This document shows positions 15,001 through 18,000 of a DNA stretch of 25,110 nt, piece by piece. This DNA comes from Sulfurimonadaceae bacterium (GTDB lineage: Bacteria > Campylobacterota > Campylobacteria > Campylobacterales > Sulfurimonadaceae): positions 1 through 25,110 of the forward strand of contig JBFEXS010000020.1 of NCBI GenBank assembly GCA_041562555.1, written 5' to 3'. Each line of letters begins with the position of its first letter. The first letter of the stretch is position 1. Position numbers: made by a program.

Positions 15001-18000
15001 TCGATGGATGCCAACCTTCTACACATCTCCTATGAAGGGCTTCATCTAGAGGACCCGTTTGCCGAGCCTGAAGATGACATGTGGTTGTGGACCAATTCTC
15101 CGGAAAATGCTCCAGATGAACCGGAATACATCGAGATAGGTTATGCCCATGGTGATCCTGTAACCCTTAATGGGAATACGCTAAGCCCGGCCACTATGCT
15201 TAAAACATTGAATGAGCTTGGAAACAAGCACGGTATCGGACGTATTGATATTGTAGAGAACCGCTTTGTCGGTATGAAAGCGCGTGGATGTTATGAGACT
15301 CCGGGCGGGACAATCATGCTAAAAGCACACCGAGCAATCGAATCTATCACCCTTGATAGAGAAGCTGCCCATCTCAAAGATGAGATGATGCCGCGTTATG
15401 CGAAACTGATTTACAATGGTTTCTGGTTCTCTCCTGAACGTGAGATGCTACAGGCTTCTATTGACAAATCACAAGAGTTTGTCAATGGGGTCGTTCGCCT
15501 AAAACTGTACAAAGGCAATGTGATCGTTGTCGGACGCCAATCTGTCGACTCACTTTTCAATGAAGAATATTCAACCTTTGAAGAAGACGAAGTCTACAAT
15601 CAAAAAGATGCAGAAGGCTTTATCAAGCTGAATGCTTTACGCTTTATCATTGCAGGAAAAGCACGTAAATAAGCGATAGACAGATGCACTTGCATCGGTC
15701 AATAATTTAGACTTACAAAAGCCTGCTATGCATTTGCGTTGGGCACCTCTCATCTTATAAACTATCTTTTAAAAACAGAAGGTGAGTCATTTATAATTTT
15801 TTACAAAGGTCATATCGTTATGAGTACTGAAATGAAAAAAGTTGATCCGGAGTCAGCTGAATTTAAAATCGAGTTAGAAAAAACAATCAAGTTTACTGAT
15901 AAAGTCATTGCCCAATTTGGTTATGCCTATAACCCGGATACACAGATCAATGAGGGTATTCAAATGGGACTTACACGCAACAAACTCATCTATGACAAGC
16001 GTTATTGTCCCTGCTTTTTTGTGACAGGGAATAAAGAAGAAGACAGAATCTGCCCATGTAAACCTGCTATTGAGCATGAGATCCCTAACGACGGCGTCTG
16101 CCATTGTCAAATCTTCTGTACTCCTGAGTATGCTGCGGCCAAAGCATGTAAAGATGAACTTGAAGCGGTCACCCACGAGCATTCCCGTGGTTTGACCACT
16201 GCCGAATGTGAACTACTACTGAGTAAGACTGATATTGACACGGATGAGTTGACCTCTTTACTTGAAGCCCGTGAACTTGGTATGGTTGATTTTAATCTTG
16301 TAGATGTACGTGAATGGATGGAGCATCAAAGCGGTCACATCAAAGGAACTGACGCCCTCGTACCTACGACAAGCTTTTTTGATTCCCTTGCCAAAGCTGC
16401 ACTGGACACAGACAAAAGCTTGATCGTCTATTGCCATGTAGGTAGCAGAAGTGCCCATTGTCAACGTATTCTATCCGACAAGATGAACTTCAGATCTGTT
16501 ATCAATCTTGCCCACGGGATCTCCGGTTATAGAGGGGAAGTAATCCGTTAACAATTTACATCTAAGTGCAATTTTGATAGAATCACTGAAATAACTATAA
16601 AGAGAAAAAATGAAAGTATTATTAATCAAAGATGTCAAAAGCCTTGGAAAAGCGGGTGAAGTCAAAGAAGTGAAAGATGGCTATGGTCAAAACTTCTTGA
16701 TTGCCAAAGGTTTGGCCAAAGCAGCCACCAATGCTGTTCTAAATCAGCACAAGGCTCATGAAAAGAAGAAAGCCGAAGATGAAGCAGCTGAACTGGAGAG
16801 GCTTAAAGAAGTAAAAGAGAAGCTAACAACACTGGTAACGACAATCAAGAAAAAAGTAGGAGAAAACGGACATCTTTTTGGTGCCGTAACCAAAGATGAG
16901 ATTGCCCATGCCGTTGAAGAACAACATAATATTCATATCGACAAAAAACACATTGTCCACAAACTTTCGATGAAAGAACTCGGAACACATGAAATTGATC
17001 TAAAACTCGGGCATGGATTACATGCTATGATGAAGATTGATATTGTCAGTGAATAAGAAAGGTCAAGATGTTTGATGCGACTACGATACTGGCATATAAG
17101 GGTAAAGACAAGGCAGTGATCGGTGGGGATGGACAGGTGACCTTTGGAGACTCTGTTTTAAAAAACAATGCCACAAAAATCCGCACCCTCTATAAAGGTG
17201 AGATTCTTGCCGGCTTTGCGGGTTCTACAGCTGATGCCTTCAATCTATTCGATATGTTCGAAGATTTTTTGGCCAATCGTAAGGGTGATCTTATCAAAGC
17301 TGTTATCGACTTTTCAAAGGCATGGAGAAAAGATAAAGTACTCCGTCGTCTTGAGGCCATGATGATAGTCCTGAACCGAGAACACATCTATATACTGACA
17401 GGAAACGGTGATGTTGTTGAACCTGAGGATGGGGAGATCGCATCTATCGGTTCTGGGGGAAATTTCGCTATTTCAGCTGCACGCGCGCTTAAACGACATG
17501 CTGATATGGATGAAGAATCTCTGGTACGAGAATCTCTACAGATAGCTTCCGAACTTTGTATCTACACGAATAATAATATTAAACTTCTTTCACTGGACAC
17601 CTGATGAATATGACACCAAAAGAGACCGTTGCTTACTTAGATGAATATGTCATCGGTCAAGAAGATGCCAAAAAAACCATTGCGATTGCCTTACGTACCC
17701 GTTATAGACGCATGCAATTAAGTGAGTCTTTTCAAGATGAGATCATGCCTAAAAACATACTCATGATCGGATCTACAGGTGTAGGTAAAACAGAAATAGC
17801 GAGACGATTGGCAAAGCTGATGAACTTGCCCTTCATCAAAGTAGAAGCGAGCAAATATACAGAAGTCGGATTTGTCGGACGGGATGTGGAGTCCATGGTC
17901 CGTGACTTGGTAATGACTTCGATTGATATAGTCAAAAAAGAGCATCAAGAAAAAGACATCGAGCAAATAGGCAACTATGTCCTGGATAAGATTGTCGACA

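Follow-up and report, generated by a model that had tools for sequence, protein, structure and literature searches.

To our knowledge, the scaffold of the ferredoxin:thioredoxin reductase (FTR) catalytic subunit has so far been known only for reducing protein disulfides, and we know of no catalysts other than FTR-type enzymes that couple two single ferredoxin electrons, by way of an Fe-S cluster, to a two-electron disulfide reduction. The rhodanese GlpE can hand its sulfur to thioredoxin, from which sulfide is formed. There, two proteins divide between them the chemistry that we propose below for a single chain. A reductase and a rhodanese are already combined in the NADH-dependent persulfide reductases (Npsr and CoADR-RHD). 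By the account given in one report (PMC7969121), these enzymes prefer persulfide and polysulfide over disulfides, and the rhodanese cysteine has been proposed to shuttle sulfane sulfur to the reducing center.

Here, we describe a gene of a Sulfurimonadaceae bacterium (assembly GCA_041562555.1, contig JBFEXS010000020.1) whose product joins an FTR-like domain to a rhodanese. The window, meaning the whole stretch of DNA that was analyzed, is 25,110 nucleotides long. A preliminary description of it had reported an FTR catalytic domain followed by a C-terminal rhodanese within 243 amino acids, and we recovered the same architecture with Pfam E-values close to those given before. Judging from its two active sites, the protein would be a self-contained ferredoxin-dependent reductase that has its own rhodanese as acceptor, with electrons passing from ferredoxin to a [4Fe-4S] cluster and dithiol and from there to the sulfane sulfur on Cys205. 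We assign this reading a probability of roughly 0.45.

Two domains with conserved active-site residues

The open reading frame begins with an ATG codon, a start that is backed by the N-termini of relatives (Table 1). A database search (E<=1e-5) returned 1694 relatives, and both domains are present in all of the best 120 of these 1694.

Table 1. Features of the fusion gene and its upstream region, with positions in the window
Feature	Position	Strand	Basis
Promoter-like site, about 23 nt upstream of the start codon; TATAAT-like box at 15792-15797	15768..15797	+	TTTAAA-18-TATAAT, consensus match alone, 10/12 positions
Whole gene, FTR-like/rhodanese fusion	15820..16551	+	ORF and translation, two Pfam domains; 243 codons plus stop
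FTR catalytic-subunit-like (predicted [4Fe-4S]/disulfide) domain, residues 18-115	15871..16164	+	Pfam FeThRed_B (PF02943), 1.2e-31
Cysteine core CPC (63-65), CPC (78-80), CHC (94-96) and extra C100	16006..16119	+	Alignments
Linker, residues 116-145, partly conserved H-x-H-S-R-G-L	16165..16254	+	pLDDT and alignment
Single rhodanese domain, residues 146-238	16255..16533	+	Pfam Rhodanese, 5.4e-12
Rhodanese active-site loop C205-H-V-G-S-R-S211	16432..16452	+	Alignment of relatives

The N-terminal domain matches FeThRed_B with 109.3 bits, compared to a gathering cut-off of 22. Its sequence matches in the PDB include 4tpu (1.8e-9), 7pwe (1.8e-7), and 7bzk (4.6e-4), and Foldseek places its predicted structure with 7pwe, 4tpu, 7c2b, and 1dj7. 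The CPC, CPC, and CHC motifs noted previously can be read in the sequence as C63-P-C65, C78-P-C80, and C94-H-C96, and these six cysteines align with those of the solved FTR catalytic chains 7bzk, 2pu9, and 1dj7. The hallmark of a true FTR, which is the series CPC...CPC...CHC together with the histidine of CHC, is therefore present in the fusion, and the six cysteines and H95 are invariant in all 135 aligned relatives. Of the 135, 134 also have a further, seventh cysteine (C100), at a position where the solved chains have leucine. A search of the genome (88.9% complete) for the variable subunit (FeThRed_A, PF02941) gave no match, and the same search did find one in a control Synechococcus genome. 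The lack of this subunit had been noted only near the gene, and it extends to the whole of the available assembly. In two respects, the protein resembles an FDR of the 4TPU type: it is an FTR catalytic-like chain for which no variable subunit was found, and its best PDB matches are 4tpu and 7pwe. In a tree built from 113 columns, which has many long branches and does not include 4TPU, the fusion domains, stand-alone Campylobacterota-type FTR-like proteins, and four database representatives form one clade (support 100/98) that excludes the remaining FDR-like sequences, which served as outgroups.

The C-terminal domain scores 46.5 bits against the Rhodanese profile (PF00581; cut-off 22.2), and its Foldseek matches are GlpE (1gmx), YgaP (5hbo), CoADR-RHD (3icr), and Npsr (3nta). 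The loop CHVGSRS given in the preliminary description was found where expected for an active site, with C205 aligned to the active-site cysteine of PspE and of the thiosulfate sulfurtransferases 3aax and 3hwi. Residues C205 and R210 occur in all 135 relatives, H206 in 131, and G208, S209, and S211 in 134 each. Both its profile score and its active-site cysteine assign the domain to the rhodanese type that is predicted to be catalytically competent. Considering the two domains together, no substitution occurs among the 135 fusions, at identities as low as 43%, in C63, P64, C65, C78, P79, C80, C94, H95, C96, C205, or R210, and both active sites are therefore under joint selection.

AlphaFold modeled two confident domains (pLDDT >90) connected by a flexible linker (pLDDT 66-77), with no confident interface between them. 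The pTM value was 0.53 with 50 sequences and 0.58 with 135, and the deeper alignment thus brought a small gain. Within the linker, alignment A2 shows at least 90% conservation of H119, H121, S122, R123, G124, and L125, but family f5 has other residues at these positions.

The form of the rhodanese loop also bears on whether the domain might act on another chalcogen or oxyanion (selenium, arsenate, or tellurite), with ferredoxin electrons arriving through the FTR-like site. Selenoprotein models are among the nearest NCBIfam matches, and an ArsC/Spx-family gene lies near the split gene pair of two f4 genomes (G289 and G291). However, the score of 67.1 bits for the double-selenoprotein family FtrB_double_U (NF041072) is far below its cut-off of 160 and does not confer membership, and the same is true of rhodanese_LYCAU (22.7 bits, cut-off 115). 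The ArsC-family neighbor is confined to one family, and the G291 protein is best matched as Spx/MgsR-type by NCBIfam. Moreover, C-X4-R is the sulfurtransferase form of the loop and C-X5-R is that of Cdc25/Acr2-type arsenate reductases, and the fusion has C-X4-R. We consequently regard action on these other substrates as very improbable.

Distribution, gene neighborhoods, and two-gene forms

The fusion is a genuine gene that is well conserved among free-living Campylobacterota. Full-length or near-full-length copies occur in 100 of 400 other genomes of the phylum, representing 10 of 14 families, and in none of the 276 genomes of the two largest families (f2 and f3). The preliminary description had given 22 of 120 genomes and none in two families. 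Two of the earlier matches had been listed with one stop inside. These are most likely G005 and G045, but both hold intact 243-aa two-domain ORFs, and the flagged stop most likely falls in the gene just upstream because an FTR ORF located there overlaps. About eight clusters at 50% identity in a representative library span both domains. All Atlas clusters with the fusion are labeled Campylobacterota, and no other phylum is among the names recovered for outlying fusion clusters, which supports restriction to this phylum and does not by itself prove absence elsewhere.

In Sulfurimonadaceae (f1), the fusion directly follows argG in 80 of 80 loci and is followed by rplI in 79 of them, and the same two genes flank it in the window, as the preliminary description stated. 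The f8 loci have this order with a DUF502 gene inserted. Elsewhere, the neighbors are an AI-2E transporter (f7), ychF and a MORN-repeat gene (f11), alaS (f12), DsbD (f4), or MgsA and YgjP (f9). In five inspected f5 loci (G005, G007, G031, G045, and G296), the next gene after the cluster is of the CiaB type (DUF7897, named from the G031 protein). This gene has no match in the genome under study, which is a weak negative because the control matched nowhere either. No neighbor is common to all families inspected, a pattern that fits an enzyme with its partner in cis and a general electron donor. Likewise, no sulfur-metabolism gene is a conserved neighbor, and argG and rplI are housekeeping genes. 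Alignment of 11 upstream regions revealed no conserved operator, but only the ribosome-binding region and, between argG and the promoter-like site, a hairpin whose stem sequence varies among relatives.

Such housekeeping surroundings, the gene's own promoter-like site, and its near-universal presence in several free-living families, as for a core function, are compatible with a biosynthetic or trafficking sulfurtransferase. The rhodanese would then hand sulfur to a carrier, such as a thiocarboxylate-forming carrier protein, a tRNA-thiolation enzyme, or an Fe-S assembly scaffold, and sulfide release would not be its purpose. The FTR-like domain would only reset the rhodanese cysteine after turnover or after its oxidation to a disulfide or sulfenate, and sulfur relays of this kind generally need a reductive step. 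The best NCBIfam matches of the rhodanese domain, and also of the separately encoded rhodaneses described below, are the rhodanese tails of MoeZ/MoeB-type adenylyltransferase/sulfurtransferases. However, the scores for the fusion (38 and 36 bits) are far below the cut-offs and are generic for single-domain rhodaneses, and none of the families inspected shows a linked gene for a carrier, an adenylyltransferase, or thiolation. The fusion was found in none of the 276 f2 and f3 genomes, so any pathway common to these bacteria and to those that carry the gene must run without it. We therefore consider a dedicated sulfurtransferase unlikely.

Genomes link the two modules repeatedly, and not only by fusion. 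An FTR-like gene directly adjoins a rhodanese gene in G289, G291, and G388 (f4) and in G296 (f5), and two of these genomes (G388 and G296) have the two-gene form alone, with no fusion at all. Second matches that are full of stops in G364, G297, and G269 probably reflect the two-gene form as well. The one in G364 is flanked by a pilT-like gene and a Peptidase_M20 gene, a context that fits this interpretation. Extra rhodanese genes are found beside the fusion in G007 and G130. For all six separate rhodaneses tested, the best match in the genome under study is the rhodanese domain of the fusion (34-45% identity, E 1e-20 to 1e-25), compared to 32% identity or less with its other rhodaneses. Neighboring FTR-like and rhodanese genes, with a rhodanese of the fusion's own subtype, provide independent comparative evidence that the modules work together. 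Both the existence of the two-gene form and the subtype of the separate rhodaneses are new here.

The stand-alone FTR-B paralog mentioned in the preliminary description is present at C1:71741-72088 (~114 aa). None of 18 sampled loci of stand-alone FTR-like paralogs has a rhodanese within 3 kb, and their neighbors vary by family (PEPCK; a P-type ATPase with Dabb; RecQ; gatC with Peptidase_M20). In one f2 genome (G216), the corresponding site upstream of rplI-hslV holds the FTR part and no rhodanese, and the FTR part must thus be useful by itself.

A solitary FTR part at the syntenic site would suit an ordinary ferredoxin:disulfide (thioredoxin-type) reductase, to which the rhodanese merely docks, or which it stabilizes (standing in for the missing variable subunit) or regulates. 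Since the variable subunit was not found, the cluster may be shielded in some other way. Among the solved relatives, FDR enzymes are the closest, and one of them, from Methanosarcina acetivorans, reduces a thioredoxin according to one review (PMC6262447). Retention of the CHC histidine of true FTRs and the 11 thioredoxin-fold matches in this genome point the same way. However, were the rhodanese purely structural, one would not expect C205, R210, and the entire loop to persist in 131 to 135 of 135 relatives. No thioredoxin gene is a conserved neighbor, and the stand-alone paralog of the same genome would be a more natural reducer of thioredoxin-type proteins. In addition, an NADPH-type thioredoxin reductase (TrxB-type match, E<=1e-50) is found in 400 of 400 other Campylobacterota genomes, so the fusion is unlikely to be the main thioredoxin reductase of the cell. 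On balance, we find a thioredoxin-type reductase improbable.

TrxB itself was not found above the cut-off in the genome under study, probably owing to the incompleteness of the assembly. We rejected the separate idea that FTR-like proteins replace an absent NADPH thioredoxin reductase, given the TrxB-type match in every one of the 400 other genomes. A 2-oxoacid:ferredoxin oxidoreductase N-domain (1.2e-51) is present, which makes a source of reduced ferredoxin plausible. The label "sulfur-oxidizing" that had been applied to Campylobacterota is backed in part for this genome: SoxZ was found and SoxB was not in the 88.9% complete assembly.

A candidate route from ferredoxin to sulfane sulfur

If the protein is a self-contained ferredoxin-dependent reductase, then sulfane sulfur from thiosulfate, from polysulfide, or from a persulfide of low molecular weight or on a protein would be loaded onto Cys205 as a persulfide. 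The tethered rhodanese would swing over to the FTR-like active site, where the exposed thiol of the C65/C96 pair would attack the persulfide, such that sulfide leaves and a C65-C96 disulfide forms. Two successive one-electron transfers from reduced ferredoxin, by way of the [4Fe-4S] cluster (C63, C78, C80, and C94), would then open the disulfide again in the manner of FTR. Overall, the reaction would read sulfane S + 2 reduced ferredoxin + 2 H+ -> H2S + 2 oxidized ferredoxin. The clade-specific C100 (in CHCxIFC) may contribute a further thiol to persulfide or trisulfide chemistry. The physiological role may lie in supplying sulfide for biosynthesis or in clearing persulfide or polysulfide from the cytoplasm. 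We infer this role, as well as cluster binding, ferredoxin as the donor, the sulfur species, and the direction of the reaction.

Several observations were counted in favor of this ferredoxin-dependent route: Pfam scores above the cut-offs, the invariant residues, the FTR-like cysteines and CHC histidine, the alignment of C205, the two-gene (Rosetta-stone) form, and the precedents set by FDR fusions and by NADH persulfide reductase. Counted against it were the uncertain domain placement, the housekeeping neighbors, the distance of most paralogs from any rhodanese, the FTR-only genome G216, and the failure to find SoxB. Furthermore, ferredoxin has a very low potential, and forming sulfide at its expense would waste energy unless the flux is small.

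The preliminary description had proposed a ferredoxin-driven persulfide or polysulfide reductase or a sulfur transferase, and the architecture, the intact catalytic residues, the lack of a variable subunit, and the restriction to Campylobacterota lend partial support to that proposal. It had also allowed that the architecture may be cataloged without study. The architecture is indeed cataloged, and a full-text literature search found no study of an FTR-rhodanese fusion. A new reaction for the FTR scaffold, as was claimed, is possible, but the logic of pairing a reductase with a rhodanese already has a precedent in the NADH-dependent enzymes described in PMC7969121.

We also entertain, as a tentative and somewhat doubtful proposal, that the FTR scaffold was turned within Campylobacterota into a ferredoxin:persulfide (sulfane-sulfur) reductase with the tethered rhodanese as its sulfur-presenting arm, and that the fusion may have been lost in the two largest families sampled. 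If this is true, a natural rhodanese-wired FTR would extend FTR chemistry to persulfides and would tie the low-potential ferredoxin pool to sulfur trafficking in the cytoplasm of free-living Campylobacterota, a connection so far unrecognized. Chemolithoautotrophic members of the phylum, which abound at vents and in sulfidic groundwater and sediments, would gain a direct ferredoxin route to sulfide or sulfur carriers. The small, soluble, self-contained protein is cheap to test, with the split two-gene forms as a natural control. Even after a negative outcome, the family would stand as a branch of its own among FDR-like proteins, restricted to this phylum and carrying a seventh conserved cysteine.

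Comparison with described enzymes

The M. acetivorans FDR (4TPU) is the best PDB sequence match (residues 18-105), with all three cysteine pairs aligned. Like the fusion, it is a single polypeptide in which an FTR-catalytic-like domain, lacking a variable subunit, is joined to a second redox-related domain. However, its partner is a rubredoxin instead of a rhodanese, it has CYC in place of CHC, and it lacks C100. The glutaredoxin/ferredoxin disulfide reductase of Desulfotalea psychrophila (7PWE), for which a literature search found no publication, also combines an FDR-type domain with a thiol-handling partner in one chain (Foldseek E 1.2e-5, rmsd 2.1 over 93 columns). It too has CYC and no C100, and its partner is an N-terminal glutaredoxin (dithiol/disulfide), whereas that of the fusion is a C-terminal rhodanese (persulfide carrier).

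The cyanobacterial and chloroplast FTR catalytic subunits (1DJ7, 2PU9, and 7BZK) belong to the same Pfam family. Their CPC...CPC...CHC series aligns with that of the fusion residue for residue, and the Foldseek target-normalized TM-score is 0.60-0.64. Their sequence match is nevertheless weak (4.6e-4 to 8e-3), and the fusion differs in its X12/X13 spacing, its extra C100, its rhodanese, and the lack of a variable subunit in the genome searched. On the rhodanese side, GlpE and PspE (1GMX and 2JTQ) have the same fold and loop type, and GlpE gives a Foldseek E of 3.1e-4 and a target-normalized TM-score of 0.76. These proteins are free-standing, however, and depend on separate thiol acceptors, and the fusion falls far short of the NCBIfam cut-offs for GlpE and PspE.

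The Npsr and CoADR-RHD enzymes share with the fusion the combination of a disulfide-reductase module and a C-terminal rhodanese with a conserved cysteine, and their rhodanese domains match structurally (Foldseek, 3icr 4.3e-4 and 3nta 5.6e-4). They use FAD, NADH, and bound CoA in a pyridine-nucleotide disulfide oxidoreductase fold, whereas the fusion has an FTR fold with a predicted [4Fe-4S] cluster and dithiol, and ferredoxin as its presumed donor. Pfam finds no FAD/NAD(P)H domain of that kind within the 243 residues of the fusion, which is therefore not a member of the group. By analogy, it would be the ferredoxin-driven counterpart of these rhodanese-tailed NADH persulfide reductases.

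Architecture and conserved cysteines

The preliminary description had proposed that a catalytic-subunit-like domain of ferredoxin:thioredoxin reductase (FTR) is fused to a C-terminal rhodanese. The reading frame, both Pfam domains and the motifs in the sequence bear this out (see table). The FTR motifs occur in the order C63-P-C65, X12, C78-P-C80, X13, C94-H-C96, and the rhodanese loop is C205-H-V-G-S-R-S211. On alignment, all six FTR cysteines pair one to one with those of FTR chains (7bzk, 2pu9, 1dj7) and of chains of the ferredoxin:disulfide reductase (FDR) type (4tpu, 7pwe), and C205 matches the active-site cysteine position in PspE and two thiosulfate sulfurtransferases.

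Coordinates of the fusion gene, its elements and related loci
Feature	Location	Strand	Details
Fusion ORF	window 15820-16551	+	translation of 243 residues
FeThRed_B domain	residues 18-115		Pfam 1.2e-31, 109 bits (cut-off 22)
Rhodanese domain	residues 146-238		Pfam 5.4e-12, 46.5 bits (cut-off 22.2)
H-x-H-S-R-G-L stretch	residues 119-125, window 16174-16194		linker
C130 codon	window 16207-16209		linker
C214 codon	window 16459-16461		helix after rhodanese loop
Hairpin region 3' of argG	window ~15690-15760
Stand-alone FTR-like paralog	C1:71741-72088 of G000, the genome under study (L001 1456-1800), outside the window		~114 aa; adjoins aspS, ppnK, recN
Broken fusion gene, G043 (f5)	L130 4379-5087
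DsbD gene, family f4	L135 4950-6938	-	full-length
FTR-like gene, G216 (f2)	L140 4039-4353	-	103 aa

Conservation was judged from an alignment of 135 fusion proteins that are 43-88% identical to the window protein. C63, P64, C65, C78, P79, C80, C94, H95, C96, C205 and R210 are unchanged in all 135, while G208, S209 and S211 of the rhodanese loop are each found in 134 and H206 in 131. Eleven cysteines are present in the window protein (63, 65, 78, 80, 94, 96, 100, 110, 130, 205 and 214). The seventh, C100, is kept in 134 of the 135 fusions and also in stand-alone FTR-like proteins of Campylobacterota; its position aligns with leucine in solved FTR chains and valine in FDR chains. C110 was found solely in the window's sequence. 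In a more balanced set of 50 relatives, C130 and C214 are each present in 40. Sixteen sequences lack C130 or C214, with both missing in 9, and this joint loss may reflect an optional disulfide or a common role.

AlphaFold2 models gave a mean pLDDT of 91.4 and a pTM of 0.53 with 50 sequences, and 92.1 and 0.58 with 135. Because pLDDT is high but pTM is low, and residues 111-130 reach a pLDDT of only 66-77, the predicted fold is one of two well-defined domains on a flexible tether, with an interface that is not confidently placed. Structural hits from Foldseek for the N-terminal half were FTR catalytic chains, 4TPU and 7PWE, in which a glutaredoxin is fused to a ferredoxin disulfide reductase. 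For the C-terminal half they were the single-domain rhodaneses GlpE and YgaP, together with the rhodanese domains that form the tails of CoADR-RHD (3icr) and Npsr (3nta). The low-confidence linker also holds an H-x-H-S-R-G-L stretch, at least 90% conserved among the 135 relatives and replaced by other residues in family f5, that may serve as a hinge or docking element.

Distribution and gene neighborhood

A word-indexed search returned 1694 relatives at E<=1e-5, and the best 120 of these 1694 all carry both domains. Origins among the best relatives include Sulfurimonas, Sulfuricurvum, Nitrosophilus and metagenome assemblies labelled Helicobacteraceae. In an exhaustive search of 1.84 billion representatives, only about eight clusters (50% identity) cover both domains, and every Atlas cluster matched is labelled Campylobacterota.

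By row count of a genome search, 100 of 400 other Campylobacterota genomes have a near-full-length match. Among the families sampled, these fall in f1 (34/34), f4 (16/20), f5 (5/7), f6 (1/3), f7 (22/23), f8 (3/8), f9 (2/2), f10 (1/2), f11 (13/19) and f12 (3/4). No such match was found in the 118 genomes of f2, the 158 of f3, or the single genomes of f13 and f14. Two matches flagged for a single stop (G005 and G045) are in fact intact 243-aa ORFs; judging from overlapping ORFs, this stop most likely lies in the FTR gene immediately upstream. Family f5 has one further copy, in G043, broken across two reading frames near residues 64-66, which may be a true frameshift or an artefact of sequencing.

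In the window, the same-strand gene order is flaG, fliD, fliS, argG, fusion, rplI, hslV, hslU, era, in agreement with the flanking genes first described. Among related Sulfurimonadaceae loci, argG precedes the fusion in 80 of 80 and rplI follows in 79 of 80, the remaining contig ending there. Family f8 has the same order with one gene inserted, and the families inspected have no neighbor in common. Sequence matching predicts a promoter-like site for the fusion gene itself. The hairpin 3' of argG in relatives, where stem sequences differ among genomes and pairing is kept, is probably the argG terminator; pairing in the window itself is less clear. At one f4 locus (L135), the gene directly upstream of the fusion, in the same orientation, encodes a DsbD with N-terminal, membrane and thioredoxin-like domains.

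Split, tandem and stand-alone forms

The two modules also occur as separate, adjacent genes. In family f4 (G289, G291 and G388), a 113-aa FTR-like gene is followed directly by a 114-120-aa rhodanese gene, and in G296 (f5) an FTR-like gene is followed by a 119-aa rhodanese gene; the genome search found no fusion at all in G388 or G296. In f4, Thioredoxin_7-like genes are also found close to this split pair. A two-gene arrangement of this kind probably also explains the second, stop-laden matches in G364, G297 and G269; at the G364 locus the flanking genes were scanned, and they fit it. Six f5 genomes and G341 (f10) have a stand-alone FTR-like gene directly upstream of the fusion, and an additional rhodanese gene adjoins the fusion in G007 (f5) and G130 (f6). 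The conserved f5 cluster (L125-L127, L129 and L130) comprises divergent glnB-amt, a CCHC-motif FTR-like gene, the fusion and two small ORFs, after which come, in the four loci fully scanned, a CiaB-type gene (DUF7897, ~585 aa) and an ~80-aa ORF.

All six separate rhodaneses tested have the fusion's rhodanese domain as their best match in the genome under study (34-45% identity, E 1e-20 to 1e-25), versus at most 32% identity to its other rhodaneses. They retain the active-site cysteine, in loops CRTGHRS, CRTDNRS, CRSGNRT, CRTGNRT and CQAGIKS. A tree of the FTR domain (55 rows, 113 columns, many long branches) places the fusion domains, stand-alone Campylobacterota-type forms and four database representatives in one clade (support 100/98), apart from other FDR-like outgroups. 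Within this long-branched tree, the f4 split forms and the stand-alone paralog of the genome under study are nested among fusion domains. This paralog, whose reported presence was confirmed, is 61% identical to fusion residues 5-107, retains CPC...CPC...CHC plus the extra cysteine (CHCGIFC), and may act on thioredoxin-type proteins.

The split and tandem genes, rhodanese subtype and tree are offered as evidence that both modules belong together. Counter-evidence comes from 18 further loci of stand-alone FTR-like genes, none with a rhodanese within 3 kb and with neighbors that differ between families, and from G216, where an FTR-like gene without a rhodanese lies directly upstream of rplI-hslV. 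This is the position of the fusion in the window, and the rhodanese half looks to have been lost there.

Proposed electron path and known systems

Electron flow from ferredoxin through a [4Fe-4S] cluster to a cysteine pair is the established FTR mechanism. In the fusion, ferredoxin electrons would enter the predicted cluster and pass to the C65/C96 pair, which would reduce whatever species C205 binds, most simply a persulfide that would be reduced to sulfide. We consider this the best-supported reading (probability roughly 0.45) because it follows the FTR mechanism, fits the 4TPU and 7PWE fusions and parallels NADH persulfide reductases.

The genome under study (2.10 Mb, 137 contigs, 88.9% complete) encodes a 2-oxoacid:ferredoxin oxidoreductase domain and 11 thioredoxin-fold matches, and the FTR variable subunit was not found in it. 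That the fusion is a thioredoxin-type disulfide reductase with the rhodanese as an accessory seems unlikely. FTR-like proteins as replacements for NADPH thioredoxin reductase were rejected for Campylobacterota, since all 400 other genomes have a TrxB-type match (E<=1e-50). In the 88.9% complete assembly no TrxB (TIGR01292) was found above cut-off, probably because of an assembly gap, and a weak fragment lies at the start of contig C64. The same genome has 10 rhodanese matches. It is similarly improbable that the fusion is a sulfur-relay enzyme whose FTR part merely resets the rhodanese cysteine. SoxZ was found (3.2e-28) but SoxB was not, so this assembly gives an incomplete view of the sulfur-oxidation equipment. 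A role tied to selenium or arsenic is very improbable.

The architecture is already listed in public annotation, with names among the best relatives such as [quoted passage not shown] "sulfurtransferase" and [quoted passage not shown] No study of the fusion was found in full-text searches, whose scope did not extend to the possibly relevant Balsera 2013 and Prakash 2018. New here are the split and tandem gene forms, a rhodanese subtype dedicated to fusion and split forms, the conserved C100, NADPH-type thioredoxin reductase throughout Campylobacterota and the predicted flexible tether.

We class the fusion as a reductase of the FDR/FTR type that would carry a new kind of acceptor within its own chain. 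It shares the CHC histidine with true FTR, whereas the FDR chains 4tpu and 7pwe have tyrosine there. In both of the latter an FDR-type domain is joined to a redox partner, a habit that the proposed reading fits. A direct functional parallel for the proposed mechanism is provided by NADH persulfide reductases, described in PMC7969121 as disulfide-reductase-family enzymes that prefer persulfides and polysulfide over disulfides and have a C-terminal rhodanese, whose cysteine is proposed to carry sulfur to the reducing center.
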